Source: Podarcis liolepis (Eukaryota). Taken from it: 64,000 bases of DNA. The position numbers and the translations under genes were made by a program. The notes under the pieces are model-generated. The model ran no database searches. It was given only the letters and a program-made list of their open reading frames with translations, and was not told the DNA's origin. The first letter of the stretch is position 1; each line of letters opens with the position of its first letter. The DNA lies in assembly GCA_965112155.1 (NCBI GenBank), contig OZ218101.1; one strand, 5' to 3'. Of this stretch, positions 4,096 through 64,000 are shown one piece after another.

Positions 4096-4305
<210 letters not shown>

Positions 4306-7295: not shown

Positions 7296-7403
<108 letters not shown>

Positions 7404-9649: not shown

Positions 9650-9713
9650 ACTGGTTGTCCTAAGTCTATCTCCCTGGCAACACTGGTTGTCCTAAGTCTA
9701 TCTCCCTGGCAAC
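9650..9713. repeat. Perfect 32-bp tandem duplication
   Basis: actggttgtcctaagtctatctccctggcaac occurs twice in tandem. Confidence 0.95.
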
Positions 9714-10209
9714 AAGAGCCTTTTCACAAGTTATATAATAAATTATGTGTATAGTCAAGGTCTTTTCATAAGTTAAAAGTTTAATTTTTAAAAATTCCAT
9801 TTGTAGAAAAGAGAGAGGCTTCTAGTGGCTTTTCCTGTGGTTTAAAGATCACATTTATTTGTCTTAATGCTTATTAGTACCTTCTCATACTTCAACAGGG
9901 AAAGAATATTGCCCTGGGAGACAGCTGTGTGGGCATCTTCACCTACTTGCTAGACATTTCAGCTGACATTTATGTAGATAATGCAATAGGCTTCCATCTT
10001 TAAGTTTAGTGTAGGTGTGAGTGCCTTCAGTTATTTCCCGCATATTCACCTCATTTCATTAGGAGAAAGAAAATGCATTTCTGTACAGTTTCTCACAAGT
10101 TTGTTGCATTTCAAATACTATGGCGGTGGTAGAATTCATATGAGACAAGCAAGAAACAAGGAGTGAGGAACTAAGTAGGTAGGTCCTGGAATAACTAGAT
10201 AGGTAGGAT

Positions 10210-10815
10210 AATAATAATTTATATTTATATGCTGCCAGCCATTCTGGGTAACTTCTAACAAATTAAAACATCAAACACAGGAAAACATTAAACATTAAAA
10301 CCTTCCCTTTACAGGGCTGCCTTCAGATATATTCTAAAAGTCATATAGTTTATTTCCTTGACATATTACAGGCAGGCATTCCACAGGGTGGGCCCTCTGC
10401 CTGGATTCCTGTAACCTCAATTCTCTCAATGAGGAAGCTACCAGAAGGCACTTAAAGCTGGATCTCAGTGTCCAGGTTGAACGATGGGAGTGAAGACGCT
10501 CCTTCAGGTATACCGGACCAAAGCCATGTAGGGCTTTAAAGATCAGCACCAACACTTTGAATTGAGCTCAGAAGCATACTTGGGAGCCAATGTAGATCTT
10601 TTAGGATCAATGTTATTTGGTCCTGGCAGCCACTCCCAGTCACCAGTCTGGCAGCCACATTCTGGATTAGTTGTAGTTTCCAAGTCACCTTCAAAGAAAG
10701 CCCCACATAGAGTGCATTGCTGTAGTCCAAGTGGAAGATAACCAGAGCATGTACCACTCTGGCAAGACAGGGTGCAGGCAGGTAGGGTATCAGCTGGCAT
10801 ACCAGATGAAGATGG
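10210..10815 (-). mobile_element. L2-clade LINE 3' fragment
   Basis: Minus-strand peptides VVHALVIFHLDYSNALYVGL..KLQLIQNVAARL..LHWLP and VLIFKALHGFGPVYLKERL (L2 ORF2), with frameshifts. Confidence 0.88.
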
Positions 10816-11106: not shown

Positions 11107-12228
11107 ATGTGATGTAGATATATATTTGCAAGACTCAGAAGGAGACTCAGCCATATGATAAAATATTAACAGTTGGGTATACTGTGATTTTGCTCTGAGC
11201 CATTATTTAATGGAAATTGACTTCCTGGGGCAGATCTTTGCATGCTCTCCCCAAAACCATACAGCAGGGGTTCCGAAACTGATAATCTGTGGTATGTCTT
11301 TAAAAGTACAATAAAAAAATCATATAACATGTAGCACAGCTCATGGCAGTTGCTACAACAGAGAGAATAAACATTATCCCTCTGAATATGGTCATATTAT
11401 TCCAGTGCCTTCTCAGTGACTCAGGCTTTGTGGAACTGAAGACATGTGCCACTTTTGCCTTAGTGGATGATGATAGATTATCCTCTAGCTGGATATTTTG
11501 AGGAAACAATAGTAACTTGCTGTATGCAAACATAATCTATATTTGTCCTGTATTGGTGAAAAAGGATCTAGTGGACTGAGCATGGGTGCTTTAGATGTGT
11601 CTACAGTTGTGCATGGCTGCTGCTGTTGTTAAGTAGAGCATGCTGTCATAAATTTAGAAAAACAATACAGCAATTATACCTGGTAGCTGCATGAAACATT
11701 GGATATGCCAATATTTTCTTATTTTTTCCCATTTTCCTTTACAGTGAGGATTATTTTAATTGTAAACCTTAAAAATATGGAGAATTTATATTTTCTAGTT
11801 GTATGCATATATGGATTTATGTTTCAAGACAGCTCTTAGAGTTTAAGACTGTGAACTTGTTTGTTCACATTTCTAGGGCATATTTTTGTTTCTATTGAAT
11901 TAAAATAAACAAATAATATGATTAAATTTGCTTATTTATTTTTGGCACTGAGGAATGTATTGTAAGTGTGTGTTTATATGTATACACATGCTTGCATTAG
12001 TTATTTCATTTATTATTATTATTTTTAAAACTATACTATATTGATTTTCTGGCTGTTTTAAGAACAAGGCTAGGATTCTTAAAACAGCCAGAGACAGCAA
12101 AACCTATTGAGCTCATTGTTGAAATAGACCACAATCCTGTACACACTTGGGAGTAAGTTTCACTGAATTCAGTGGGATGTACTTCTAAGCAACGTGCATA
12201 GGATGGTGCTGTTAATTGATAATGCTAT

Positions 12229-13003: not shown

Positions 13004-13605
13004 CAGTGGTACCCCGCAAGACGAATGCCTCGGAAGACGAAAAACTCGCTAGACGAAGGAGTTTTTCGTTTTCTTAGCCGCTTCGCAAGACGCATTTCCC
13101 TATGGGCTTGCTTCGCAAAACGAAGCTTGCACCACAAGCTCCGGGGATAGCGGGGAAGCGCAGCGCGTCTTCCCCGCTGTCCCCGGACCTCTTTTGAAGC
13201 AAGGGGCGGCGGGGAGAAGATCGCTTCTCCCCGTTGCCAGCCCCGCAATCTCCGGGGACAGAGGGGAAGGCGCGCGCGCCTTCCCCTCTCTCCCCGGACC
13301 CCTTTTGAACCAAGGGGCGGCAACGGGGAGAAGCAATCTCCCCTCCGCCCCTTGCTTCAAAAGAGGGGACAGAGGGGAAGGCGCGTGCGATTCTCCCCGC
13401 TGCCCCTTCCCTTGCTTTAAAACAGGTCCGGGGACAGAGGGGAAGGCGCGTGGCGCTTCCCCTCTGTTCCCGGGACGGTCTCCATAGGAACGCATTGATT
13501 GATTTTCAGTGCATTCCTATGGGAAACCGTGCTTCGCAAGACGAAAAACTCGCAAGAAGAAAAAACTTGCGGAATGAATTAATTTCGTCTTGCCATACAC
13601 CACTG
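13004..13605. mobile_element. Tigger/pogo-type (Tc1-mariner superfamily) MITE with GC-rich internal repeats
   Basis: TA|CAGTGGT...ACCACTG|TA; subterminal (GC)AAGACG repeats; internal ggggacagaggggaaggcgcg units. Confidence 0.88.
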
Positions 13606-13739
13606 TAATATATTGCCTTCAGGGTACAGAGTGAAAGAAGCAAAGATGTCCTGAAAAACTCTTGTTTGTTTTCGGGAAAGTTGTTGCTTTACTTAGTGAG
13701 TGGTTAGGGATGATAATGGGCTAGAGGTAGTTAATGGAA

Positions 13740-14075: not shown

Positions 14076-14080
14076 TAGTA

Positions 14081-14270
14081 CCGTATTTTTCGCCCTATTC
14101 GACGCACTTTTTCCCCTCCAAAAATGAAGGGGAAATGTGTGTGCGTCTTATGGGGCGAATGCAGGCTTTCGCTGAAGCCTGGAGAGCAAGAGGCGTCGGT
14201 GCGCACCGACCCCTCTCGCTCTCCAGGCTTCAGGAAGCTCCCCGCAAGCCTCGCTGCGGAGCACGCCCTG
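14081..14270 (+). mobile_element. Truncated pogo-type MITE (CCGTATTTTTCG family)
   Basis: TA|CCGTATTTTTCGCC terminus; near-identical to the inverted copy at 28310-28712; second TIR missing. Confidence 0.85.
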
Positions 14271-16052: not shown

Positions 16053-17475
16053 GGCTGCCTTCTATGTACTTCCCCCAAACATGTGCTAGAAGAGTGGTGG
16101 TGCTTTGATCTATTTTCTCAGAATTAAAATGCATGTGCACAAAGAAAATGTTATGTTTCCCTTCCACCAGATCAGATTGGCTTATCTGTTGCCTACTTTA
16201 GCACAAGTGTAACTACAACGACTCACAGTGCAGTCATAATCATGTCTACTGAGTTGTAAGTCACACTGAATTCTGTGTTATTTTCCCCCTAGTAAGTTGG
16301 TAAGGCATTGCAGCCTACATTTCCTAGAAACATTTCTCTGGCTAGTTTGCCTTTATTTGTTGGTGATTCACAGCAGTTTTGTTTTAAGAATTGTTTTGGT
16401 AAAAAGTTACCTCTGAGGAATTGCAACCTTTGATTGTAAGCCGTATCTCCCAAACAATCACACCATACTTCATCTCCACTTCTAGTAAGTTAAAAGTGTT
16501 CTTATTAAGTATCCTTAATAAGAAATACATCTGTACACCAATAATACAGCTTTAATCCTTGATTTGTAGTCGTCATTTCTTTCTGACATGCCAGCTCATG
16601 AAAGGAATTCTTTTTGCCATGAAAAAAGGTCTGCTAAAATACCTCTCCTGGAAAAATTCCAGAAGGATAGCCATGTTTTACCTTGTCTGTAACAAATATA
16701 AGAAAACATATATTAAAAATAAATAAAAATAATTTCATCATTGTTTAAGTGCCAGTGGGCTCTTCAAATTAACCCAGAATGACCACGAGTTTCTCTGTAG
16801 TCCTGCAAGATTTATCGAGACTTGCCAGCATAGGATACAAATAAACTTATGCTAACTATGGAGCAATGGATGGCACCAACATGCTCTATTAGTGCTACCA
16901 TTAAAAAATGTTAAAGATGAAATATAGGTTTGTTTTACTCTTCAATGTGGATAAAACAGCCCAAAAATGTAGGCTTCCTTTCTACTGAGAAAAAAAATGT
17001 TATATTGCAGTGTTGAATTCCACCCTAAGTGGTTAAGTGTGCTTAGCAACACTAGTTTTTCTGTATCTGGAGCCTTAGAATGGTGCTTCTACATTCTGCT
17101 TTCTAATTTTCTTTATAAATGTTTGATTATTCAAAAAGAAAGAAAGCTAAGAGCCTGGGGGCCCTACTGGCTTGAACCCTAGTACATGAGTATCCCCTGT
17201 GCTCCTGCTGTGTCCTCTGTCACCAGTCCTGCCTCTGATTATTGAATAAGTAAACCAGGGATAGAAGGAATTAAAAAGAATGGTGAAGGAAAGATGCATG
17301 CATGCACTTGTGGGGAGGTGACATGGACATTATTTCTATATGAATACAGCTGGGATAGAGGGTGTTTGCAAAAGTCTGTGAACAATTAAAATCATTCCTT
17401 TGTTTCTAGATTTAAACGTATCATTGGAGCACAAAAAATAATATTATTGTACTCTGTTAATTTTGTTTTTTTCAG

Positions 17476-19634: not shown

Positions 19635-19716
19635 CACAGTGCAATCCTATACATGTCTACTCAGAAGTTGAGTTCAATGGTGCTTACTCCCAGGTAAGTA
19701 GGTGCAGGATTGCAAC
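19635..19716. repeat. Representative of an old ~90-bp palindromic interspersed repeat (other copies near 12129, 16224, 40150, 41365, 42146, 51112, 55908)
   Basis: Shared pattern (G)CAATCCTA..CTACTCAGAAGT..TTCAATGG..CTTACTCCCAGGTAAG..AGGATTGCA with inverted ends. Confidence 0.75.
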
Positions 19717-22700
19717 GAGAGGCTCTGAATGCAATCAGATATTTAATGATGTTGCTTCTAGGTTAATAGGTTTAGGCCTGGGATGTGGATTTCTTGCATC
19801 CCATAAAATAAATTTATATGTAGCAGCTGAATGTTCTTAAAGAAAACACTTCCATATTGGTTACATAATGCAGGAAAAAAATCCTGGTTAATTTAGGAAA
19901 ATGTCCCACCCCCTTTTCTAGCAAGATTTATTGATAATGTTGTTACTTATATGAACTCCTTCGGTATATTTACAATAAGTTACGCTTGTTTCCTGGGTTC
20001 CTCATATTTGATATGAATGTTTATGCAACAGTTAATAAGCGCTAAGGGTTGTAGCCAAGGCTGAGCAAGTGAAATTCTACTTGTGCAACAAATTTTCAAT
20101 TTCCTCTCCTACAAGTGTTCCCCCAACCCTCTGCATCTCTTTTTGAGGTTGTGGTGGGGCTGAAGAAGTAGTTCTGTTTTCACATAAAGAAGTCTGATGT
20201 ACCAGCAGTACTGCAGCATGTGATAAAGCTCAAAGTCTTTATTTTAGTGGATACTTTTTATATGTCACCTGAAGCTTTTTCAGACTGGATACTATTTAAA
20301 TATTTTCAAAATTTGTTCATACTGTACTTGGTGCACTCTGCCCTGCCCAAACCCTCCATTCCTACTGTAGTACTATACTGCCGTTCATTCGTAATCTCAT
20401 ATTTGTCTCAGTGCCACCAGTTCAGGTAAAGACCATTTTCAGTACCATTGTCTGCTGTTTTTTCCATCTCACATATCGTAACTAATGTTGGTTCTTCATG
20501 GTTTCACTGAGATTCATAAACCTTTCCTAATTCAGCTCTCCTTTTATTGTTTTCTTCTTCCAGAAGTGCCCTTTAAGATGTGACCAAAACGATTTTATTT
20601 TACTGTAAATTTTCTATGTTTCAAGCCTCTATGGTTGATTTTCTGCTGCTTTGTCGGTTTAGATGGCAAGGTTCTCCATGCATGGAACTGTTTATTCATT
20701 ATTTGTTTGAACTGTATATGGTACAGTAAAGTTATGCCTCTTAAGAGTACTTCAAGAACAAAAAGTGGATGACAGAAACATTGAATGTGTCTTCAGATTT
20801 TTAACTTTTGCCTTTCCCCACTGTATTTTGTAGACAGTAAGCCAAGTGGTATCAATTTCCTGGCAAAACATGTAATTTGGGGATTCTGTAAAGTATTGAG
20901 TTGTAATGGTTCACTGCTTATGTAAACTATTTTTGACACCTATCATTGAAAAATGTTTCATGAGCTAAATTTGTGTAAGCTACTTAAATGTCTGCAATAA
21001 TGATTGCTATAGAAGTGTGAATGGGTGTCTTCAAACCTTGCTATGATTATCATGGGTATTCAGCAGTTTTGAAGGGTCTTCCAGATTTTTGTATGTCGGA
21101 AAATGTAAGCAGAACAGCTGGGTAACCAAATTTCCTGTAGAACTTTTGATTTATCTGAAAGCTATTTATCATTTATATAAAAAGCAGGGAACAAGGGCTG
21201 CATTTCCATGTAGGGAAACCTTGGGGCCCAGGCCTATGGTGGGCAGAGCAATGAATGACTCTTAACTTTTGCTCAGTAGGCTACATTCCAGCTACACAAA
21301 TGCCACAGGTTTCTGTGCGCATGTACATGCATCTATCCATCATTGTATCAAGAAAGCAAGATTATTATCACAGTTCAATAATACAGTCAAGCTAGGCAAC
21401 AGCCCTCTAGGAAAATGTGATGCACAAATGGTGAGGGTTGCAGTCTGGGGTGAGGTCCGAGGGCAGGATAAAGAAGTCGGGGGGGGATCCCATTCATCCT
21501 CTGGGCCTGAGATTTCTCACCACTGATCCCCATTTCTTACTGTTGCCAACTGGAAATAATGATAACAGAAGATAAATGAATTACAATAACACATGTTAAA
21601 AGAAGGCACGGGCAACAAAGACAAATAAAACCTCTTCAGCTAAGGTATAGGCAATATGAGCTCAAGAAGGATGGAAATAAGGAACAAAGTGAAGCAAATG
21701 TTTTTTTTGCCAACCTTTTATTGTGAGTGGTTTTTAGGAACCAAATGGTTGAACTATAGGTGATAAAAACAAGATAGAAACTATGGAAGAGTGGGCAGGA
21801 AATGAACTGGCTGCTTATTTTTTAATGAATGCATTTCAGCTTTTATCCCTTTTATATTTGAGGGCTCTAAGGCTTAATTGCTACTGACATTGTTGGGATG
21901 TTAGGCATTATTAATTTAGTGCACCATTTGTGATATCAAAGAATATATGTCTTTGCATAGCCTTGCACAATTGCATGCTACTAGGGATATACTTGTCAGT
22001 ATATGGAAACAGAGGGGCCAGCCTCTGTGGAGAGGGCTTGCAAATCGACAATACTGTGATCAGTGATTAATGTAAGAGGAAGATGTATACCATGTGCAAA
22101 GCCTGAGGTAAGGTATAGCTTGCAGAATTTTAAGACACAGGCAAGAAAATAGCTGTAGTGGTTAAGAAGCATCAAGATTCATTCATATGATCAATTTGCA
22201 GTTTTTTATCCAGATGGGTTGGTTTGTAGGAGGAGGGTAGAGATTTTACATCACTGGTTTAATTATAATCACTGGTGTGTGTTTCTGTGATCTAGATTCT
22301 CAAAATATGAATTGGGCTTGTTTAACTAACACTTGTTTAACCTGTATCGGGGATCATTATGTCACTTTTGCCTGGATTCAGCATTGACCAGCAACTCTAT
22401 ATTTAGTTTTTCTATATTCCAGTTTTGGCTGGAATCTTGATAGAAAAGAAAAGTCAGAGGTGCATTTTTATTATTGTGCTGATAAAACCTAATTTGGCAT
22501 TCCTGAACAATTAAATTCCCAAGTTCAAACAGCAAGACACAAACTTGAACAGAAAGAGAAAGAGAACAGGATGGACTTGTGGGCATTTTTGAGGGAAGGC
22601 AGGGAAATACCAAGTAACCAGTCATCACCATTCTTAAACTTCACAGCTAAGAACCAATGGAAATACAGTGGCAGGTTTTACAGGTAACACCACTAATGTC

Positions 22701-27549: not shown

Positions 27550-28283
27550 TAAACTTTGGATTGTGATTCCCCTTTTGCTTGCGTACGTGTGTATTAACTG
27601 CAAAGGATCAAGAGCATGTTTGGGGAAGGAAGGGGTGCACGTGGGAGAACAGCTTGAAAGAGCTTGGGCTAGAGTCGTGAGAAAGTTAGCTTCAGTAATG
27701 CATATAAACTGGACTTTGTTCAAGGGAGGAAAAAGTGTATCACGTCATACCTTGTCGTGAATTAAAGGAAATTTGTCTTAATTCACATAGGATTTTGTGC
27801 TGTAGTTTGCTGTGGTGCAGTAAACACATTTCCTATCTAATAATGTTTTTGGTTTTTTTATTGGAAATCAAATAATATTAAAAGCTGATAAGTTAATATC
27901 TCATCTAAGCAGCACACACAACCTTTCATGGCTTCTTTGTTTATAAAACTAGAGGTAATGTCACCAGATTCGAAGTCATTGTACCAACTACTGAGAGTTT
28001 GAGAAAGGATAGTCACTCTTGCAGACATTCACCTCTACACATATAGTAGCCATTTTCAGACTTATGCTTATTCATTTGTGTTGTATGAGAGGTATTCTCT
28101 AGGTTCCTCTAAAGGACAGAAGCCACCTTCTTACGAAGGAAACTCAAACTGCTGAAAATATCTGAAAATAGAATTTCCAATGACATTCTTAAATCAACCA
28201 TAGAATTCTTCTTCCCATACTCCACCAGAAGTGGAGTTAAACTTCAAGTCACCAATAGTAGTGTTTGTACATTGTTTACTATA

Positions 28284-28914
28284 CAGTGGTACCTCGTGTT
28301 AAGAACTTACCGTATTTTTCGTCCCATAGGACGCACCTAGTTTTTTTGGGGGGGAATAAAGGGGGGGAAATTTTCTTTATTCCCCCCCCCCCAGACCAGG
28401 TCGGGGAATCCAAACCAGGTCAGGGAACAGCGGGATGGCGGCGCTCCGCCTCCCCGCTGTCCCCCGAGCTTGTGGGGCTGGCGCTGGGGAGAAGCGCAGG
28501 GCGCTCTGCTTCAGCACTGTGGGAACTCCCGCGGGCTCCCCAGGCTTGTTGATTGCTTCCTGAAGCCTGGAGAGCGAGAGGGGTCGGTGCGCACCGACCC
28601 CTCTCGCTCTCCAAGCTTCAGCGAAAGCCTGCATTCGCCCCATAGGACGCACGCAGATTTCCCCTTCATTTCTGGAGGGGAAAAAGTGTGTCCTATCAGG
28701 CGAAAAATACGGTAATTTGTTCTGGAGGTCCGTTCTTAACCTGAAACTGTTCTTAACCTGAAGCACCACTTTAGCTAATGGGGCCTCCCGCTGCTGCCGC
28801 ACCACTGCTGCACGATTTCAGTTCTTATCCTGAAGCAAAGTTCTTAACCCGAGGTACTACTTCTGGGTTAGCGGAGTCTGTAACCTGAAGTGTCTGTAAC
28901 CCGAGGTACCACTG
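28284..28914. mobile_element. Tigger-type MITE (outer element), interrupted by a second MITE
   Basis: TA|CAGTGGTACCTCG...CGAGGTACCACTG|TA; internal TAACCTGAAG repeats; same family as 63940-64000. Confidence 0.92.
28310..28712 (-). mobile_element. Pogo-type MITE (inner, nested), 403 bp
   Basis: TA|CCGTATTTTTCG...CGAAAAATACGG|TA: 12-bp perfect TIRs and a TA duplication. Strand is given relative to the 14081 copy. Confidence 0.92.
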
Positions 28915-29769
28915 TAGTTGGAAAGCTCCTGCCACTACAGTTTCCCACAGGAAAATACATGAGGGTTTCCAACAGGTGTTCTACTGTAGGTTAGGGGCAC
29001 AGCCCACCACCGAAATGCTGCGACGCTTTGCATTCCTGGTACTTAATGTGCATGTCAGTAAACTAGTAACACACTCCATCCTGTGTCAGTTTGGCATGCA
29101 TGCTCACACAATTGCCTTGCTTCTCTATAGTAAAAACTTCATTGAAACTGCCTTGATTGAAGCTTCTGTTGGGATGAAAGTCACATCACAGTGACTAACA
29201 AGATCCTCTGATCAGTCCCTTTATCTAATCAACATGACTAATCACAGTGATAGGTCTGAGTTCTTGCAAATTTAGTTGAGGCTATAAGTGAGTTACTAAT
29301 GTGCGTGGAGCAGAACAATATGAACAATTACAGCCTTCCATAGTTCTGCTGAAGCAGTTTCCATTGTCAAACTGAATAATAATAATATGGTTAAACTGAA
29401 TAATCTCCCATATGTGTAAACATAATTTATTTGAACTGTGACCGGTATCAATATAATAGTAATACTTTCCATGTATTGCTCTCAACATAATTTGTCACTT
29501 AATAAAACATCTGCACAGATATTGATAATACATTTTTAGAACGAGTCCATAGATTGATGCTGTTGGTGGTGTTTAATATTTAGTGCTCTCAGAGCAAAAT
29601 AATTGAAAAAAATCCATAATATATAGTACTACTTGCCTTGTTTTATAAATATTAAAAGCATTTATTCCATAAGGGCTAAGTTATATTTGGAGGAAATGTA
29701 AAGTGGTTTCTAGTTTGCCTTAATAGATATCATTACACTGCAGTCTAATTAAATTCAATGTGATTAGAG

Positions 29770-32764: not shown

Positions 32765-32866
<102 letters not shown>

Positions 32867-39288: not shown

Positions 39289-39349
39289 AAACGCAGTTGG
39301 TTAGTAGGGCTAACCAAAACGCAGTTGGTTAGTAGGGCTAACCAAAACG
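39289..39349. repeat. Perfect 28-bp tandem duplication
   Basis: aaacgcagttggttagtagggctaacca occurs twice, followed by a partial unit. Confidence 0.93.
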
Positions 39350-39599
39350 TCACAAAATTGAGACAAGCTTTCAAGCTCTCCAGCACTCTGCTTCAGGCAA
39401 AATGCTACAGAAAGTGCAGGGTGTTAGCAGGAGGAAAAATAAAATCAAAATGTCCAAAATTTACGATGAATGTTGTAGCTTGTTTTGCCTAGTTACCGGG
39501 GAGTAACTATAGGTTACAATGTATCAAAATAAAACAACTAGTTCTACATCTCCATTGATGCTGTCTATTTAGTGCTTTTCAAACAGCAGTCATATAAAC

Positions 39600-40827
39600 C
39601 AGTGTTTCCCAACCTTTTTTGGGCAAAGGCACACTTGTTTCATGAAAAAAATCTCGAGGCACACCACCATGCCAGATGGGGAAAGGTCACTTTTTACTTA
39701 TGTAAAAAAAAAAAAAAAATAGTAACAGCATAGAAGGTAATGGTTAGGCTAGCATCCCTCTTCCAAATATGCTAGGTTTTTATTTGCAGGGACTGTTCTA
39801 CATGGGAAAGCATTCAGCACTGTCATTCTCCCATCTGCCATCTGAATTGGTACTATTCTGGGTCAACTTACTCTGCTGCATGTGTAGATGAAAATGGCAC
39901 CAAGTGTGGGGGAGGGGGCAGAACAGGTTTCAGATACAGGATATTAAGCATACACGTACTTCAGATTGAACTGGTTGCTTGCTTTGCAAGTTTTCATTCC
40001 CAAATGACTGCCTTGGCAAGTGCAATACCTACCAGGCTCAACGCCGGTCTCGCGCTGCCGCTTCCCGCGCTCTCAAGGACCCGGGAGGAGGAAGGCGTGA
40101 AGGCAATCCCGAAGGCGCGAAAATGTTATCAATTGCTTCTTCTTGTACAACTGCAGCCAGATCCTACCCGTATTTACTCTGGAGTAAGCCCTAGTTTGTT
40201 CACGGGGTTTTGCTCCCGCGTAAGTGTGCACGAGGGATGGCAGCCTTAAATATCGGGGAGACGCAGGAGTCGCCTGCGCTGCTGTAATTCCCCCTCCTTT
40301 TGGGGAGGGAGGTGCTGGGCTACTGTGTTTACTTGGAAGTCCCACGGAAGTTAATGCATTATTAGGCTACTACTGGCTTAAGCCGGTGCCCGCCTTCATC
40401 CCTAGGCGAGAGGCACAGAGTTCTGTTCCGCCCGGGCGCTGCCTCTTTAAACGAGCGTGTGGTTGAAGAAGGCGCTTGCCCAGCTCCCCTCTGCGCCTCG
40501 GAGGGCGGGTTTGAGCACGCGCAATGCGCCGCCCTCCCGCCCTGCGCCGCCGCCGTCTCGCGCTCCTCCCTTTTGCGCGCGCTGCCCCGCCGCCGCCCCA
40601 TTGGCCGGGTCCTGTCAGCTGATCCTGTGTTATTTCCTGTGTGTGAGGGGAGAATCGAGAGAGAAACCTCGGCACCACCACCGCGGAGCCGCCCCTGGCT
40701 CGACGAGGATCCTCGCCGCAGCTGCCCCGCCACTCGCCGCCCGGCTCGCCCGCCTCCCTCCCACGGCACACCAGGCAACGTCTCGTGGCACACTAGTGTG
40801 CCGCGGAACACCGGTTGGGAAACACTG
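39600..40827. mobile_element. Non-autonomous hAT (Charlie-like) element, 1228 bp, with CpG-island-like cargo
   Basis: Perfect 15-bp TIRs CAGTGTTTCCCAACC; perfect 8-bp TSD atataaac (39592-39599 and 40828-40835); subterminal GGCACAC motifs; no transposase ORF. Confidence 0.93.
40040..40780. promoter_or_regulatory. CpG-island/promoter-like segment inside the hAT element
   Basis: Dense non-repetitive CpG sequence with GC boxes (40503, 40529, 40537), reverse CCAAT (40600), CGGAAGT (40345) and E-box CAGCTG (40616). Promoter function is inferred only. Confidence 0.45.
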
Positions 40828-43699
40828 ATATAAACCACTTTTGAAACTAGGGGGTTTTTAGAGTAGTTTGTGATGAAGCATTGTATTCTGCCACCCTCAG
40901 AAAGATAACATACCTCCTGAATAAGTGCAAGCCATTTTGAGGAATTAAATACTGGCTATATTTCAAAAGCCTACTTCAGTCCCGTAAGACCAATAGATCC
41001 TAGAAGAGGTGTGCCTCTCCCCTCCCCAATTTCTTCTTTGAACAGTTAAGCCCACTTCGTATCACAAACAGTTTTTGAATTTATATCTATTTAAAAATAA
41101 GTTACAATCCCTTGTGGGGAAAAGAAAAAAACCCACAGGTTTTAAGTATATTTGGGCTAATTTTGAGGTTCTGTGAATCTGGCCCATTATTACCTGGGCT
41201 ATGACCAGAACATTTTTTTAATGGGGATTTATTTTATTTTATTTTAAAAATGCTGCTCTCCATTTCCCCTTTCACTAGGCCCTCAAACAGAACATCTGAT
41301 CCATAAGTGATTAAAGTTAACCCTGTTTAAAAAATTTACAAGTGATTTGAAGACATGGTCTGAAGGCTGTGATCCTAAGCATAATCATCTGAAAGTGAAA
41401 GCTATTGATAGGATTTCCAAGTAAAGAAGTTTAGGATGTTAAGTGTATAAATACAGGGGGCTTTGTAAAAGGAAAACAATTATATGATTATTAAAATAGC
41501 TCTTATACTTTCAGAATTAAGTTATTGATCAGTTTAAAGTTATGATTCATATATAAGGCTCTTCCGACTCCAAGCATTTTTCACAATCATGCCTAAGAGG
41601 AGGACTTGGAATCTGTGACTCTCTTCACCCTAAACTTCTGTGTCTCTGTCATTCCAGGCTCTGCCTCTTATCAACTGTAACGTGAGTAATGCATCCTGAG
41701 TCAGAGGTAACACCCACCTACTACTTGACAGAGTCAAACATTTGGGTCAGTAAAGCTTCCAGCTTAAAAGGACCTTTTGCTATTAGACTATATTCACAAA
41801 ATTGCATTTTAATGTTGTAAATTAAGTAAGTTTTGAGTACTCCTTTTAATTTTTAAAATCAGGTGCTTTTTTATGAAACCTTTAAAGCGAGAGCCTTACT
41901 CATATGAAGTCTTCAAGAAATACACACTTCAGGGCTTTATGATTAACACACACTCCTGTTACTTCAGTTCACATAATTTAGCAGCACTTTTACAAATAAA
42001 TAAATAAACATTCATATTAATTATACTGTGTTTAAAAGCTCTGCATCCATTATTAAAAGTATTGCTTTTGATCATTATTAAATTACATTAAATAGACCAT
42101 AATACAAAAATAGATTGCACCTAGTTATTTGGAAAAATTGTCTTTGGCTGCAATCTTATATAAACTTACAGAGGAGTAGTCTCATTCAACTCAATGAGGC
42201 TTACTTCTGAGTCAGCACATATATGGTTACATTGTTGTTATTTGTTTGGTTCCATATTTTAACAACTACAGAGATATCTAAAGAGCTACGTATTGCATTG
42301 CATATTAAAATTTGAATTTTAGAGACAGCATAAATACAATGTAGGGTGTTTTTATAGTGGATAATGTATTGACTTCATTTTTTATTTACATAAATGTGGA
42401 CAGGGCAAGCAGTGATTTAAACATTATATATCTCTTTTAATTAGCTACCAAAATTTTATGCAGTGTACTCCGCTGTCTATCATAATCAGAATAGAGAACA
42501 TTGTATTTTGGCTAAGAATGTGCTTATAACTAGATGAAGGAGTTTGTCAGAAACGAATCCTTGACTGAAGAAAAACTAGAAAATCCTATCAGCAATTCCA
42601 TGTTCCTTTCTAGACAATTTATTATTAGATATTTCTGATGACACACCTTTTGCTATCTAAAATATACTCAATCTGTCTTTTCAGAAATAGTCATTTAATT
42701 TACTATGCTTTTGTGATAATTTTTATGAAAAGTACTATGTAAAAAACAAATCAGCCATCTTTGGTCAAAAGGTCTACTATGTGTCTGCCACTGCCATTGT
42801 TACATTAATACTGTAAAAGGGAAATTTGAATGGCACAGTTCATTGGGAAAAGACGAAGTTCATGTTTGTGTATATGTGTGTATAGATTAAGATTCTTGCA
42901 CACCTTTAATCTGTTATGGGCTAAAGATTGGGCAGGCAGTGAAGAGGTACGGGGTCAAGGTTAGGAGAGAGAAACAAGAAGCCCTAGATGGAAAGCTCTG
43001 TAAAATATCTGGAATGCTGGGGTATTATACAAATTCTGAATGTTTGTGTAGAAAAACTTCTCTATCAGCAAGTTTTAAAAGAAGATTTAAATACCCACCA
43101 AACACTATGATTTGAGAGAAGCCTTGATTTCTTGGCAACTCTTAAGGATTTGGACAATAGGTCAGGTTTTTAAAGAGGCAGACCTTCTAACTGCTATATG
43201 GCTCCTTCTCCATCTTTGGCTTGCTCAGTAACATACACTATGTAAATGGGAGCCAAGGAACCATCTTCAAATGCTGGAAGAAGCTGTCAGTGGTCAACTG
43301 CAAAAATAGGGTCTAGTTTCCGGTCTTCATATTTTTAACTGAGCCCATGCATGGATCCTGCAAGATGGTATTTTACTGCTACTTTCTCTGAAGTGGATTC
43401 CATAACTTCTAGCTCAGATTTAGCATACTTCTGGGCAAGGGCATAATTTTTAAATGGCTCATTGGCAATAGTGTTTCCTTCCCCCCCTGCAGAAAGAATA
43501 AATCTAGATTAAATAGAAGAAATGTGGGCTGACATTTTGATGCTGAAGATAGCATATGGACAGTTCCAAAAAACCATACATGCACCAGAAACATCAATCA
43601 TGCAGTAATCACCCATGTGGAACCACCCTTTGACTGACATAGTCATGCAGATCAACAAATGAAGTTAGGTAGTTTTTCAGGGAAAGACTATAGGTCAAT

Positions 43700-51100: not shown

Positions 51101-52990
51101 ATTCAGAATATGGCTGTGATCCTTTTCAGAAGGTAAATCCCATTAAACATAGTGGGACTTCCTTCTGAGTAGACGTACATAACAGCACCATAACTGTGAC
51201 TAGTCTTTGATTTCATTCCAGCATGCTATTAGTGGTTAGACACAGAAAGTACTATGGTCTCAAAGCAATCCTAAACATAATTAATTGGAATTTGTTGTTT
51301 TTTTTAATCAGTCGGACTTGCAAGTAAATATAGTTATATTTGGACTGTAAATTAGTAGCCAAATATTTTTTCTGGAACAATCCAGAGTATTATTGTTATA
51401 TTACTGTTCCTTAGTGTTTTGCTGATGTATGTTCTTAAATTGTCTTTCAAGTTTAAAATATTCATTGCAATCCTAATACGTTTTACAAAATTTGCAAAGT
51501 GAAATTTCAGGATTTATACAAGATTTTTAGATCTCCCCCCCCCCCATGTTCCTTAGAGGGATCACAATTTGACCATACCCTTTATATTGTTTTGGTAATC
51601 ATAACTTCTATATAGTTTTTATTTAACAGAGCATTGAAATAAGCATATTATTTTTCCTCAAAGCTATTGGCTTAAAAAAATATGTTTCTTTCATTTCCAG
51701 GTTTTAAATATATTTTTTATCACCCTCTTTTTGTGATATTTGTTTCATTTCCCAATCTTGTTATTTCTCTTTTTGGAAGGAGTGGGGACGGAACGATGTT
51801 CTCTTTTGGTAGTTTCCAATAATGTAAATGATGCCACACAAAGCTAAGTACTAGTAAACTTTAATCAAAGATGGGTTTGCTGCTGGGGAACCTACTATTC
51901 TGCCTTCTGGAAAATACTCCTTTTAAAAAGTGCTTTGGACTTATTTAGTAATCTATATAATGCTGTTTCAACAGACAAGCCTGAAAAAATATATAAGATC
52001 CCTGAATATGAATTCTGTGTATAAGGTTTCCATTTATGTAAGTCAACATTGGTGTAGTTCTAAATAGACAAATATATTTCTCAATGTTTATCCATAATTA
52101 TCCCTTTGATTCTAACCTATAATTTGTCCCTATAGTCATACAACATTTCATGTTTAGAAGTTTTAAAATTATTCTGTGACTGTCATGTTCTGCTGAGGTT
52201 CTGCTGTTAATTCAACATGAGCAATCTGATACCTTAAATGATTTTTGCTAAATGAAATGTTTCTCTGCTGTGCTATTTCCCTTGAAGAAATACAATCTTT
52301 ATCATTAAAGGGTCACACATTCAGTATATTTTTTGTTGTTACTCCCATTTGATTTTTGCTAGTTAATAAATATTTTTTAAGCACAGAAACTTTCTTGTCT
52401 GATGGACAGGACAGTCCTATGATCTCACTGTTCCTCATAGCCACTGCACAAGGCTATCACCAGGGCTAAAGTTGTGCTCAATTAGCTCAGCCAATGGCCA
52501 TATAAACAAAAGGAAAGTTTCCTTTACTGGGGGTTGCAGGAACTATGAAGCAGGCAAGGAGACCACTTGGGTGCAAGTGGTGGAAAACCACATGTGAATC
52601 TGAACAAACACAAATAAGAATTTATTATCAAGCCTATGGTGGTGGCATCTCCTTCTCTATTACCACCCAACTGAGGAGTTCCATCCATTGGTTCAGGAGC
52701 TTACCTGGTTCATTAAAGCAATACGAGGCTACCTAGGATCTAGTCTTTTGCTGGATGGTTTTGAATTGTTGAAACCAAAGGATACGGAGAAGTATTTAGA
52801 TAAGTAGGCCTAAAGCATAACCACATATTCCTTGCTCTTCTTGGCCTGTAACATCTAGCAGAAAGAAATTGGCTAAGTCCAGGAGTTAGTGAATGCCTCT
52901 TTGTGGAATGTGGAGATGGGAGTGGGTGTGGGGTTTCACCAGAACTGAATGCCATGGTTCTGTAACATGTTCCTTGGACACAAAATTGTG

Positions 52991-54960: not shown

Positions 54961-56429
54961 CCCTGACCCAATGCCATGCCAACCCTGCTTACCTCACTGT
55001 GGTCAAGAAAAGTTCCAGCCTATTTTCACCCACTCCTGTGTCCTGGTCATTATTCACTCTCTACCTGGCCTAGGGAGGGCCATCACAATGTGCCTGGCAT
55101 GCAACTGTATCTTCACTGTTATTAAAATAAAAATTGAAAACTTGCTGGCTGCCTTAGGAGATGCAGATAGAGTGAACATGATAGGGAACAAGTCTACTCT
55201 GCAGCATTTATTCAAATTCAAATAAAGCAAAACCTGTGAGAAGGAGAACTATGCAAGACATTCAGGTGCCACATATTCACCCAATCAAGGCCCATACCAG
55301 AATTTGAAACTATGGGAGACCATGCAATTTTCCTAGCAATTGTTTCTCAGTCTGTATATATTATACAATTGCTGTATTTTAGCAACAAATTGTATTTGTA
55401 TATAATTTTGCTCCTGACATTTCAATCCTCCCTTTTTCACACACAGTGGAGTATCTTTGTTTTCATCTTACCATGAGTCTTTAGGACTCTTGCTGCTATT
55501 AAAAATCTATGTACACCCAGCTGTGTGCTAGCAGCTATGGTGAGGATATGCAATTGTGAAATCTGTGTTTTACTGTTTGAAAACTCCTGGCTGTAATATA
55601 AATGCTAGTAGACATGAGCCAGTCTTTCTGCTTGAAGGCTGAGAAGCATACCTAAACAGTTGCACATCAACTTCCTCTCAATCACAACCCATGGTGGGGA
55701 GAGCAAACCATCCTTGAGGGAGATGTGATGCTGCACTGCATAGACAAGGTTGCTGGGTTGCTGTGACAATCAGATTGAGTGTAATGTAGTAATCACTGTA
55801 TAGTTTCTGATCCAGAAACAGACACGCTCATCAGGCAAATTTGTTTTCACTTGTTTTATATCTTGTACAAAAATATACTAGACATAGTTTTTTAATGTTA
55901 ATTTTTGAGTGCATTCGGAAATATTTCTACTCAAAAGTAAATTCAGCTAAATTCAGTGGGACTCTCTCCCAGGTAAGTGTGCATAGGACTGCAGCCTCTG
56001 GATCTTTTTTTTTTAAAAAAAATGAAAACCACTGAAATCTGAATTACTATTTGTGATTTAATAAATTAAAACTACATGAAATTAGTGCTTCTTAATTGCA
56101 TGACTGAAATTTTACAAAATCTGAACTATAAAGTGTGTAACATGTCATGCCATTTTCTAGGAATGCCTGGGAAGGTTAAAAATTGAGAAGGTTATATTAC
56201 TCAGAAAATTGTACTCTACAAAATGGAACACCTTGTTGGAATTCACCTGTTCATGCAACATTGAGCTCATATTTACAATGTCAGCTACTCGTTTTGTTTC
56301 CATCTTGAATATTGCCTTAATAACAAAAATGACTCAGTTATTTAAATTAATAGTTAAGTGCATCTGAAGAATAAGATGGCAGTAACCATGAAAAGAACCA
56401 TCTGATTGAAATTGGCTTGTTTGCGTGGC

Positions 56430-57180
56430 AAGACCCCCCTCCCCCATGTGAAATGAAGACACTGGACACGTTATTTAAGGTTAATGGGCATAAAAAGGCC
56501 ACAACTTTATTGATTACAGAATTGAAAGGTATTGGCCTTAGGCATTGGCTCCTATCGACTACCCGGCATGGAGACCGGGAAGGGTTGTCCACAAGCCGTG
56601 GGAGTCCTGTTGAAGTACGCCAACTAGGATCCCACGGGTGCCACCGCTCGGGGGCGTGCCGGAGGCCCTTACCTCCCTAGGTTTCGGACAAGGCAACGCC
56701 CCCCGGAGTCCTCTACCGGACTACCCTTTCCTTGGGGGAAGGTGATGGCGCTTCCTTCCCCCCCCATTCATTTGCCTAACAATAAACCCCTGCCAATGCC
56801 TAACCGCCAATACCGCGGAAGTTGTGACGATTGCTACGAGGTAGGCGAAAAAACCAAAAGGCTGACAGTGCGCCAAATTGGAAAAATTCCTACCAGGCCC
56901 CTTGCGACGACCAACCGGAGTCCAAAGCAAGGTCATAGCTAGCTAACCTAAGGGTGGGTGGGATGGGAAAAACCGCTCAGCTGGCAAGGGGAAAGAGAGC
57001 GGTCCCCGGGCGTGCCTGGCCTTAAGTAGGCTACGCCACGCCTCCCCAGCCCGCCGATTGGCGGGCAGGGTCGCAGGCACGCCTGGGGATTCCCTGGGGC
57101 AAAAGGCCAGCCCCCGCATGGGATGTGGGAGGGATTTCTGCCCGCAACCCCCTCTCCTCCCAAGCTCGGAAAGGGCTTTG
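56430..57180 (-). mobile_element. LTR-like terminal-repeat remnant, probably from a tyrosine-recombinase (DIRS/Ngaro-type) retroelement
   Basis: CpG-rich ~750-bp block. The minus strand reads GC box and CTTAAG, ending near AATAAAGTTGTGGCC. There is an internal inverted copy of the terminus and no TG..CA ends. Family assignment is from memory. Confidence 0.55.
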
Positions 57181-58899: not shown

Positions 58900-59058
<159 letters not shown>

Positions 59059-59441: not shown

Positions 59442-59561
59442 TTGTTCATGTTAGTTTTGAATAGATTTCTCATATAGTTTAGAATTCTGCCACTTCATTT
59501 TGTTCATGTTAGTTTTGAATAGATTTCTCATATAGTTTAGAATTCTGCCACTTCATTTTGT
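59442..59561. repeat. Perfect 58-bp tandem duplication
   Basis: ttgttcatgttagttttgaatagatttctcatatagtttagaattctgccacttcatt occurs twice in tandem. Confidence 0.95.
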
Positions 59562-62740: not shown

Positions 62741-63939
62741 TGACCTCAGACACAAATTGTACATTTAATTGTGTTTTAATATACATTTACAGAAATTATT
62801 GAATATATTTATAGACGTTTTTAAAATGTAAATTGTCCTTATTATTCCAGATCATTCTACACAATGCAGGTTATGTGGTTAATGTTTGAAGATTCTTGTT
62901 GACGGTTCATTACCAGTGTCACAAATTGGCAGTTAAGAACAAATTGCCAACTTCTTCTCAATTTTATAAGACCATTCATGATACTATTGCAATTTGATTC
63001 CCAGAGTGAAGCAGCAGGGATGTAATTGAAACTCAACCCTAGCTTTTGAGGAATTTCCCCACACATATTTGAACAACATAATTTAAAATCTTATTATTTC
63101 AATGTCAGTGAAATACTCTTGTGAGAATATATGAGATGTTATAGAATTCATCTTGATAATACGTATTCTTCATATTTGTTTGAGTTCAGTGACACATATT
63201 CCAGGTAAGCTTGGATAAGCCTGAAGCCTAAGAGCCCTTGAAGGCAAGGATCATGTCGGCTGCTGGCTGGCCCTGAGTAGAAGGAGGATGCTTAGGTGGG
63301 CTGGCAGAAGCCTCCTAATAGAGATGAGAAAGCTGTAGTGGTGCAACGAGGGGAGAAAATAAGTTGAGGGTGAGATGAGGAGATCAAATCAGATCTACAG
63401 CTTCTGTTTACTTCTCTCCTCCTCTAGTTTGCACTTGACTGCATAAAGGCAGTCTGCATTCCCCTGTTTTAGAGACCCTTCTTCTTCCTTTTCTTTTTAA
63501 AAAGAATACACAGGTCTGCAAACATTAGGGCTCCCTTGAGTCCTGAATGGTAGCAAATAGATGGAGTGATTGCTATAAGGTTCTCTACTAATGGTACTAT
63601 ATTGCAGCTTGCATACAAAAAAAGTATCCTATAGCTTCAAAGTGAGCTATGATTAATTCCCCCTTTTCCTCATAGTTGATGAGAATATAAAGTTATTTTA
63701 AAAGTTTGAATGAAAATAAGAAACGTTATTCAAGCAAAGACAGAATATACAGTATAGTTTCTATGATTCTCCAAACATTTTTATTGAATTGTTTGCAGAG
63801 CTCGGTTAAGGAATAAAATCAGCTTTCTTTTAACATCACAGTCAGATTCCCATAGTCTATTCTATAGAAACATATTATAGGAAGGTTTGGTCTGAAAAGT
63901 CTGTGTTAAAGCGAGTAGCAGCATTGGAGGCATGTAATA

Positions 63940-64000
63940 CAGTGGTATCTCTGGTTATGTACTTAATTCGTTCCGGAGGTCCTTTCTTAACCTGAAACTG
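63940..64000. mobile_element. Tigger-type MITE left end (runs off the window)
   Basis: TA|CAGTGGTA...; uninterrupted homologue of the 28284 element. Confidence 0.88.

Follow-up and report, generated by a model that had tools for sequence, protein, structure and literature searches.

A probable non-autonomous Buster-type hAT element with host-derived, promoter-like cargo within CNKSR2 of Podarcis liolepis

The locus and its surroundings

The DNA analysed here, a single 64-kb stretch of Podarcis liolepis contig OZ218101.1 (hereafter the window), carries part of CNKSR2 on its plus strand, as had been proposed in an earlier note on the same sequence. Pfam matches to the CRIC, PDZ and CNK2_3 domains were obtained in six of the eight exons tested, and the first exon tested matches the CNK2 chain 9K1L_A (E 5e-40). 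The CRIC domain is encoded by exons at 4102-4304 and 7313-7400, the nearest identified exon upstream of the element described below covers positions 37-57 of the 81-position PDZ profile (32771-32839), and the nearest one downstream begins the CNK2_3 domain (58924-59057). The exon that would complete the PDZ domain was not found in the called bases of 32840-58923 with eleven motifs; the identified exons on either side share one phase, and the interval contains a run of N. Because this run separates the element from the next identified exon, the element most likely lies just after the exon at 32771-32839.

The window also holds a number of other insertions and duplications. A MITE at 28282-28916 has a second MITE nested inside it (28307-28715); a truncated copy of the inner one, 90% identical, lies at 14079-14251, and the outer one recurs in part at the end of the window (63940-64000). 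The GC-rich 693-bp segment at 56487-57179, with a CpG observed/expected ratio (o/e) of about 0.67 and bounded by a 7-bp direct repeat that could be due to chance, is a candidate insertion of no assigned type. Perfect short tandem duplications occur at 9650-9714 (32-bp unit), 59442-59561 (58-bp unit) and, 250 bp upstream of the element, 39289-39349 (28-bp unit, self-complementary). Two old interspersed repeat copies of about 350 bp, which we take to be SINE-like, are 69% identical and lie in opposite orientation at 1081-1427 and 10237-10589.

Ends, target site and class of the element

The element occupies 39600-40827 and is bounded by terminal inverted repeats (TIRs) of 15 bp, at 39600-39614 on the plus and 40813-40827 on the minus strand, that agree at 15 of 15 positions. 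Immediately outside them stands the 8-bp target site duplication (TSD) ATATAAAC, identical at all eight positions (39592-39599 and 40828-40835). No other pairing of TIRs of at least 11 bp with an 8-bp TSD exists in the 64-kb window, and none arose in 30 shuffled windows, so that the ends recognised in the earlier note stand as described. An 8-bp TSD and a short TIR of 5-27 bp starting with YARNG characterise hAT elements (PMC3014272, PMC3517528), and the TIR here, 15 bp long, starts with CAGTG. The TSD has TA at positions 4-5 and thus matches the Buster consensus nnnTAnnn (PMC3517528), this being a single site that is weak evidence when taken alone. The 16-mer at the left end agrees at 15 of 16 positions with the TIRs of the Anolis elements SPIN_NA1_AC and hAT-N3_AC (Table 1 of PMC3014272), a likeness that provides a lead, and only a lead, for placement among the Busters.

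Inside the TIRs lie the left subterminal region (39615-39669, its inner boundary being approximate) and the right one (40763-40812), both read on the plus strand. The motif GGCACAC, a putative transposase site, occurs within them at 39628, 39658, 40765 and 40787 on the plus and at 40802 on the minus strand. All of these copies fall within 65 bp of the element ends, in agreement with the confinement noted before; three further copies are found elsewhere in the window, outside the element. The earlier suggestion of a young insertion is compatible with the intact ends and plausible, but not proven by them, because the absence of mismatches among 23 paired TIR and TSD bases bounds divergence only below about 12%.

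Both ends of one TIR element enclose the insert, an arrangement that is among the defining features of Pack-TIRs, and the presence of TIRs and an 8-bp TSD sets the element apart from Helitrons, which have no TIRs and end in rolling-circle termini. Taken with the analysis of the interior below, 39600-40827 is probably a non-autonomous Buster-type hAT with host-derived, promoter-like cargo. It would work like a Pack-TIR, and membership in that group is likely although unproven, because the parental promoter was not found.

Composition and anatomy of the cargo

CpG islands are conventionally sequences longer than 200 bp (or 500 bp) with a GC content above 50-55% and a CpG o/e above 0.6-0.65. The stretch at 40037-40827 (791 bp, GC 0.63, o/e 0.94) lies above all of these thresholds in a window whose CpG o/e averages 0.23. 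The island reported in the earlier note is therefore real, but the gradual transition into it is not: composition steps abruptly at 40036/37, from a single CpG in the 367 bp of 39670-40036 to 67 in the 726 bp of 40037-40762. The cargo to the left of the step, segment L (39670-40036), is AT-rich and CpG-depleted (GC 0.42, o/e 0.06) and resembles long-methylated host DNA, possibly intron 1 of a gene pointing leftward. An A17 run stands near its left end (39704-39720) and is not preceded by an AATAAA on the plus strand; a minus-strand AATAAA occurs at 39784, downstream of the antisense splice donor described below.

To the right of the step, the cargo begins with block A (40037-40123; GC 0.67, o/e 1.24), which contains an E2F-like site on the minus strand ending at 40122. 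After a less GC-rich stretch (40124-40400; GC 0.52, o/e 0.64) comes a plus-strand segment resembling a promoter core (40401-40723; GC 0.68, o/e 1.0), in which composition and a motif scan place GC boxes, an NRF1-like site near 40519 and a reverse CCAAT at 40600-40604, followed by ATG-free sequence of 5'UTR-like character. The cargo closes with block C (40724-40762), where GC content reaches 0.87.

The promoter motifs listed in the earlier note fare unequally against dinucleotide shuffles. GC boxes are in clear excess (7 against 1.7 in shuffles, P=0.003, uncorrected for the 11 motifs tried), whereas the CCAAT box (1 against 1.07, P=0.67; extended form P=0.10) and the ETS-like CGGAAGT (1 against 0.11, P=0.10) occur within chance, as does the E2F-like site (P=0.28). 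The NRF1-like site reaches P=0.005 with a pattern that was defined after looking at the sequence. The reverse CCAAT has a TGACAG hexamer at a distance of 7 bp. The DECA-CCAAT composite bound by TALE, NF-Y and Sp2 joins a TGATTGACAG-type decamer to a CCAAT about 11 bp away, the oligonucleotides being listed in the supplements of bioRxiv 10.64898/2026.02.16.706105 (PMC6023610 is cited as background beside this preprint and PMC3517528). This composite was rejected here, since only the TGACAG half is present and at 7 bp. The CpG island and the GC-box excess together support a promoter-like character of the cargo, as judged from base composition and motif content.

A minus-strand sequence that could act as a 5' splice donor (40027-40035, last exon base 40033) is placed at the island edge and faces segment L. 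Scored with a donor matrix, it reaches 4.1, within the range of 3.1-7.9 shown by eight real CNKSR2 donors (a ninth was left unscored); sites as good number 83 in 128 kb, and a given point has such a site within 15 bp with a chance of 0.02-0.04. Donor and island edge together suggest a fragment of a head-to-head promoter, a reading absent from the earlier note. The interior is otherwise non-coding and non-tandem, as stated before: none of ten ORFs tested, out of 32 listed, has a Pfam match, transposase included, an Rfam search of the element returned no match, and the element contains no tandem array.

Host origin of the interior

Young transposable elements in this window are as rich in CpG as the cargo (o/e 0.99 and 0.94, respectively), and the island itself is for this reason not diagnostic of capture. 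The TA-flanked Mariner-type MITE at 13004-13606, with a GC-rich 111-bp tandem, a palindromic interior and an o/e of 0.99, illustrates that such elements can resemble CpG islands without any promoter having been captured. The young MITEs of the window as a whole, with CpG o/e of 0.74-0.99, nonetheless stand in contrast to segment L with its 0.06.

Evidence also comes from a passenger within the island. The window holds seven decayed, palindromic copies of an interspersed repeat of about 85 bp outside the element (12124-12204, 16231-16318, 19642-19721, 42142-42228, 51109-51183, 55914-56000 and 63181-63232), or roughly one per 9 kb, and an HMM built exclusively from these seven recovers a further, minus-strand copy at 40162-40248 in the cargo, with E values from 1e-7 to 3e-6 across three rounds and 23.5 bits against a maximum of 4.9 in 500 dinucleotide shuffles. 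This copy is 57-64% identical to six of the outside copies, which are 56-72% identical among themselves; its divergence equals theirs, and it must therefore long predate the intact TIRs and TSD. It folds no better than shuffled sequence (z -0.26). A second remnant of the repeat, over the ETS-like site, was dropped after appearing in one of three rounds only, at E 0.47.

The cargo copy differs from the others in its CpG content, with five CpGs in 87 bp against four in the 550 bp of the seven outside copies (Fisher P=0.003), which have none or one each; at the columns where the cargo copy has CpG, none of the six aligned outside copies does. Such retention would fit residence in unmethylated DNA. 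The old repeat could instead have landed inside the interior of an older transposon. An argument from older transposon passengers has likewise been made for the hobo elements of Anolis (PMC3014272). Because of the old repeat and of the CpG-depleted segment L, there is strong indirect support, drawn from sequence, for the interior being host DNA. The earlier claim of a captured host promoter thus holds as far as the host-derived and promoter-like nature of the cargo is concerned, given the repeat, segment L and the GC boxes; that it represents one housekeeping promoter is not established, since a relative of the element shares only two blocks of it.

A relative with a partly different interior

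This relative, P0001, was the one match when a 155-aa plus-strand ORF of the element was compared with 1.84e9 cluster representatives, and is a 140-aa ORF from one 2635-bp contig. Its last 35 residues correspond to the end of the cargo and the right hAT end (32/35), running through the junction into the target site and ending in Ile-stop, as encoded here by the right TSD, while residues 42-68 are identical to a second window ORF at 40042-40122. By back-translation, the whole 87 bp of block A (40037-40123) is compatible with residues 40-69 without mismatch. Over 40724-40830 the differences are few and all fall in block C, where at least three were counted (10 of 13 residues agree, against 51 of 51 elsewhere, Fisher P=0.007); the right subterminal region, once translated, is identical to the P0001 terminus. 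The residues outside these common blocks, 41 ahead of the first and 35 separating the two, do not align to the corresponding segments of the window. Their local scores of 16 and 20 lie below the shuffle maxima of 23 and 25, and of 200 shuffles 55 and 64 did as well as or better than the anchored alignments.

From its sequence, P0001 appears to be a structurally different relative of the element, and at least part of the cargo is thereby supported as mobile. Block A standing beside the same right end with other neighbours implies either that the interior of the family has been shuffled or that the P0001 contig is chimeric, and P0001, known from one ORF, may indeed be an assembly chimera. Since only two blocks are common, the cargo may be a mosaic, and the partial likeness at block C could be explained by template switching between homeologous, GC-rich stretches. 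Two other derivations of P0001 were rejected: as a multiply deleted derivative, its non-shared parts would not be expected to score within shuffles, and as a spliced transcript, its junctions lie, on inspection, off GT-AG sites. On its left side, P0001 breaks from the window sequence no more than 4 bp away from both the putative donor and the composition step. This breakpoint does not form a canonical splice junction, and the coincidence of position is explained well by neither a contiguous nor a mosaic reading of the cargo.

Searches for a parent or for further relatives were otherwise negative within their scope. Self-BLAST revealed neither a parent nor a second copy of the cargo in the window, which extends about 39 kb to the left and 23 kb to the right of the element. 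A protein search with the 197-aa minus-strand ORF found no match among 1059 candidates, P0001 as query found itself only among 92, and a stacked profile of five reading frames gave one weak match (E 7e-3) among 8000 longer proteins scored. Exact protein look-up retrieved none of ten ORFs, for which GTG and TTG starts may have been read differently. Patterns of the right and left ends had no match in prokaryotic genome contigs, and the 15-bp TIR string did not occur in the literature searched.

Origin of the cargo

The element has two ends of about 65-70 bp, presumably moved in trans by a Buster/Charlie/SPIN-like transposase, and between them about 1.09 kb that was probably copied from the host genome, comprising a CpG-depleted piece and some 0.73 kb of CpG-island DNA. 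The latter would stem from at least one unmethylated promoter region of CpG-island type, to judge by composition and GC boxes. Most likely, the cargo entered a shorter element through template switching while that element was being repaired or replicated, and moved afterwards; this route is inferred from published Pack-TIR models, the lack of a nearby parent and the relative with its swapped interior. As a head-to-head fragment, the cargo would offer an E2F-like site, a short exon, the donor and an intron in the leftward direction, and GC boxes, CCAAT and 5'UTR in the rightward direction. Such a fragment and a mosaic of separately captured pieces are about equally likely. A broader proposal is on balance unlikely, namely that this lizard lineage harbours a Buster-type hAT family, active in recent times, which time and again takes up and exchanges promoter modules of CpG-island type (here the head-to-head fragment with first exon and donor) and scatters them as ready-made, unmethylated two-way promoters.

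One alternative origin is in-situ gap filling, in which a shorter hAT inserted first and filler was copied in later without transposition, P0001 being another allele or an orthologue of the present insertion site with different filler. Among animal Pack-TIRs no route is commoner, and it accounts for 91 of 97 cases in primates (PMC8277862); the Ile-stop of P0001 is the same as that encoded by the right TSD here. The Ile-stop does not, however, fix the locus of P0001, because the usual NTCTAGAN target (PMC3014272) also produces it if its first base is A. Gap-filled and single-copy Pack-TIRs mostly copy DNA from within 15 kb (160 of 281 cases), while multicopy ones lie far from their parents (PMC8277862), and the failure of self-BLAST to find a parent in the window leans towards the multicopy route. 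Gap filling is accordingly considered improbable.

A second alternative regards the interior as the element's own sequence, that of an autonomous Buster-type hAT shortened by deletion, with a GC-rich end region containing its own promoter or UTR and with the old repeat embedded. Blocks A and C do travel with the right end in P0001, young transposable elements of this genome are CpG-rich, no parent was found, and the non-autonomous hATs of Anolis are reported to be mostly deletion derivatives (PMC3014272). Yet none of the ten ORFs tested shows a transposase remnant, segment L adjoins the intact island in the manner of methylated host DNA, and a repeat passenger diverged by about 40% is far older than the intact ends, all of which makes this origin quite improbable. 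Capture of host DNA by template switching, followed by transposition, remains the preferred reading.

Possible effects on CNKSR2

The earlier note went on to propose a CNKSR2 lacking SAM, CRIC and most of PDZ, transcribed from the element as a working internal promoter. The GC-box and CCAAT core and the UTR-like stretch do lie in the sense orientation of CNKSR2, and an effect of this kind has been demonstrated experimentally for the bat element HelibatN3 (PMC4778049). Unlike HelibatN3, the sense cargo offers neither start codon nor donor: 40620-40827 contains no ATG and no donor scoring above 2.5. On the sense strand, 40.6-43.6 kb contains 143 GT sites; the one at 41008 (2.6) is the first to exceed 1.5 and the one at 41825 (4.5) scores highest, 41681 (3.2) being a further candidate, and these three cryptic donors precede AATAAA signals at 41995/42003. 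A sense transcript would thus depend on a cryptic donor in the flank, 0.2-1.0 kb out, and its cryptic first exon would contain the upstream ATGs at 40873, 41201, 41221 and 41250. The truncated protein is not supported, because the only good donor of the island (40033) is antisense and faces away from CNKSR2, and transcribed Pack-TIRs in humans are, according to PMC8277862, mostly driven by host-gene promoters. A functional internal promoter for a truncated CNKSR2 is on these grounds very unlikely. Short non-coding transcripts, or silencing, are likelier than a truncated isoform; most likely, this is a near-neutral intronic insertion from which nothing more than short non-coding transcripts, in one direction or the other, would arise.

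That the element is an assembly artefact or foreign vector DNA can practically be discounted, as nothing positive favours it beyond one N run elsewhere in the window, the TIRs and TSD are clean, the repeat in the cargo is native to the window, and the element has no match in 72,556 plasmids or 50,697 phages.

Comparison with known systems

Pack-hATs have been described before, as have hATs that capture DNA in lizards and Helitrons that capture promoters in bats. Plant Pack-MULEs resemble the present element as TIR elements with captured gene fragments (summarised in PMC8277862; see also PMC5861414), and differ in belonging to the Mutator superfamily, in their long TIRs and in their plant hosts. 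The statement in the earlier note that Pack-type TIR elements are best documented in plants understates the animal record, which includes 370 Pack-TIRs, of which 208 are hATs (Tan et al. 2021, PMC8277862). As here, non-autonomous hAT ends enclose non-TE host DNA in these animal elements. Their median cargo is 224 bp (PMC8277862), in contrast to about 1.09 kb of promoter or CpG-island type in the present case, and their parents are identified, whereas none was found here within the window. Cargo from the 5' side of genes is known among them: Pack-hAT-N8_XT of Xenopus tropicalis is present at three loci with a 291-bp piece of the CAPSL 5'UTR, and the fly element Ssk-FB4 carries 5' upstream DNA (PMC8277862). 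Multicopy families are rare (4 of 281 unique cases; PMC8277862). The one lizard row of the survey (anoCar2) lists zero Pack-TIRs and also zero annotated hAT elements (PMC8277862), for which reason lizards are effectively unsurveyed.

A further parallel lies in the hATs of Anolis carolinensis (hobo-N1 to N15_AC and orphan hAT-N families; Novick et al., PMC3014272), which combine common ends with swapped interiors of extraneous genomic DNA, often containing older TE fragments, and undergo inter-element recombination. The TIRs of two of them, SPIN_NA1_AC and hAT-N3_AC, are near-identical to those of the present element. The documented capturers, in contrast to this Buster-type element, belong to the hobo clade, with an 11-bp TIR and an NTRNNYAN target, and the word 'promoter' does not occur in the main text of PMC3014272. 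Within the literature searched, which took in few subscription journals, no description was found of this element or of any squamate Buster hAT that carries a promoter, and the family may already have an entry in Repbase/Dfam.

Promoter dispersal at scale in vertebrates has so far been shown for bat Helitrons. HelibatN3-NUBPL, HelibatN211-SRPK1 and related elements have spread 15 gene promoters in 4,690 copies, the promoter travelling together with the 5'UTR, the first exon and some of intron 1; sequential capture has produced mosaics, and chimeric and truncated transcripts have been demonstrated (PMC4224331, PMC4778049). If the present element were a lone insertion, it would be an ordinary example of DNA capture by a lizard hAT. 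Should its parent be a gene promoter and the element multicopy, promoter dispersal would extend to the cut-and-paste transposons of squamates, and matched copies of one CpG island in many settings would allow methylation and promoter activity to be tested. A promoter-dispersing family of this kind would do with cut-and-paste elements what HelibatN3 does in bats, and would serve as a natural test, in a reptile, of whether CpG islands retain their state after being moved. The Helitrons move by rolling-circle transposition and lack TIRs, whereas the element in CNKSR2 is of the cut-and-paste type and known from its sequence alone; what the two would have in common is that both are vertebrate DNA transposons carrying promoter-type cargo.
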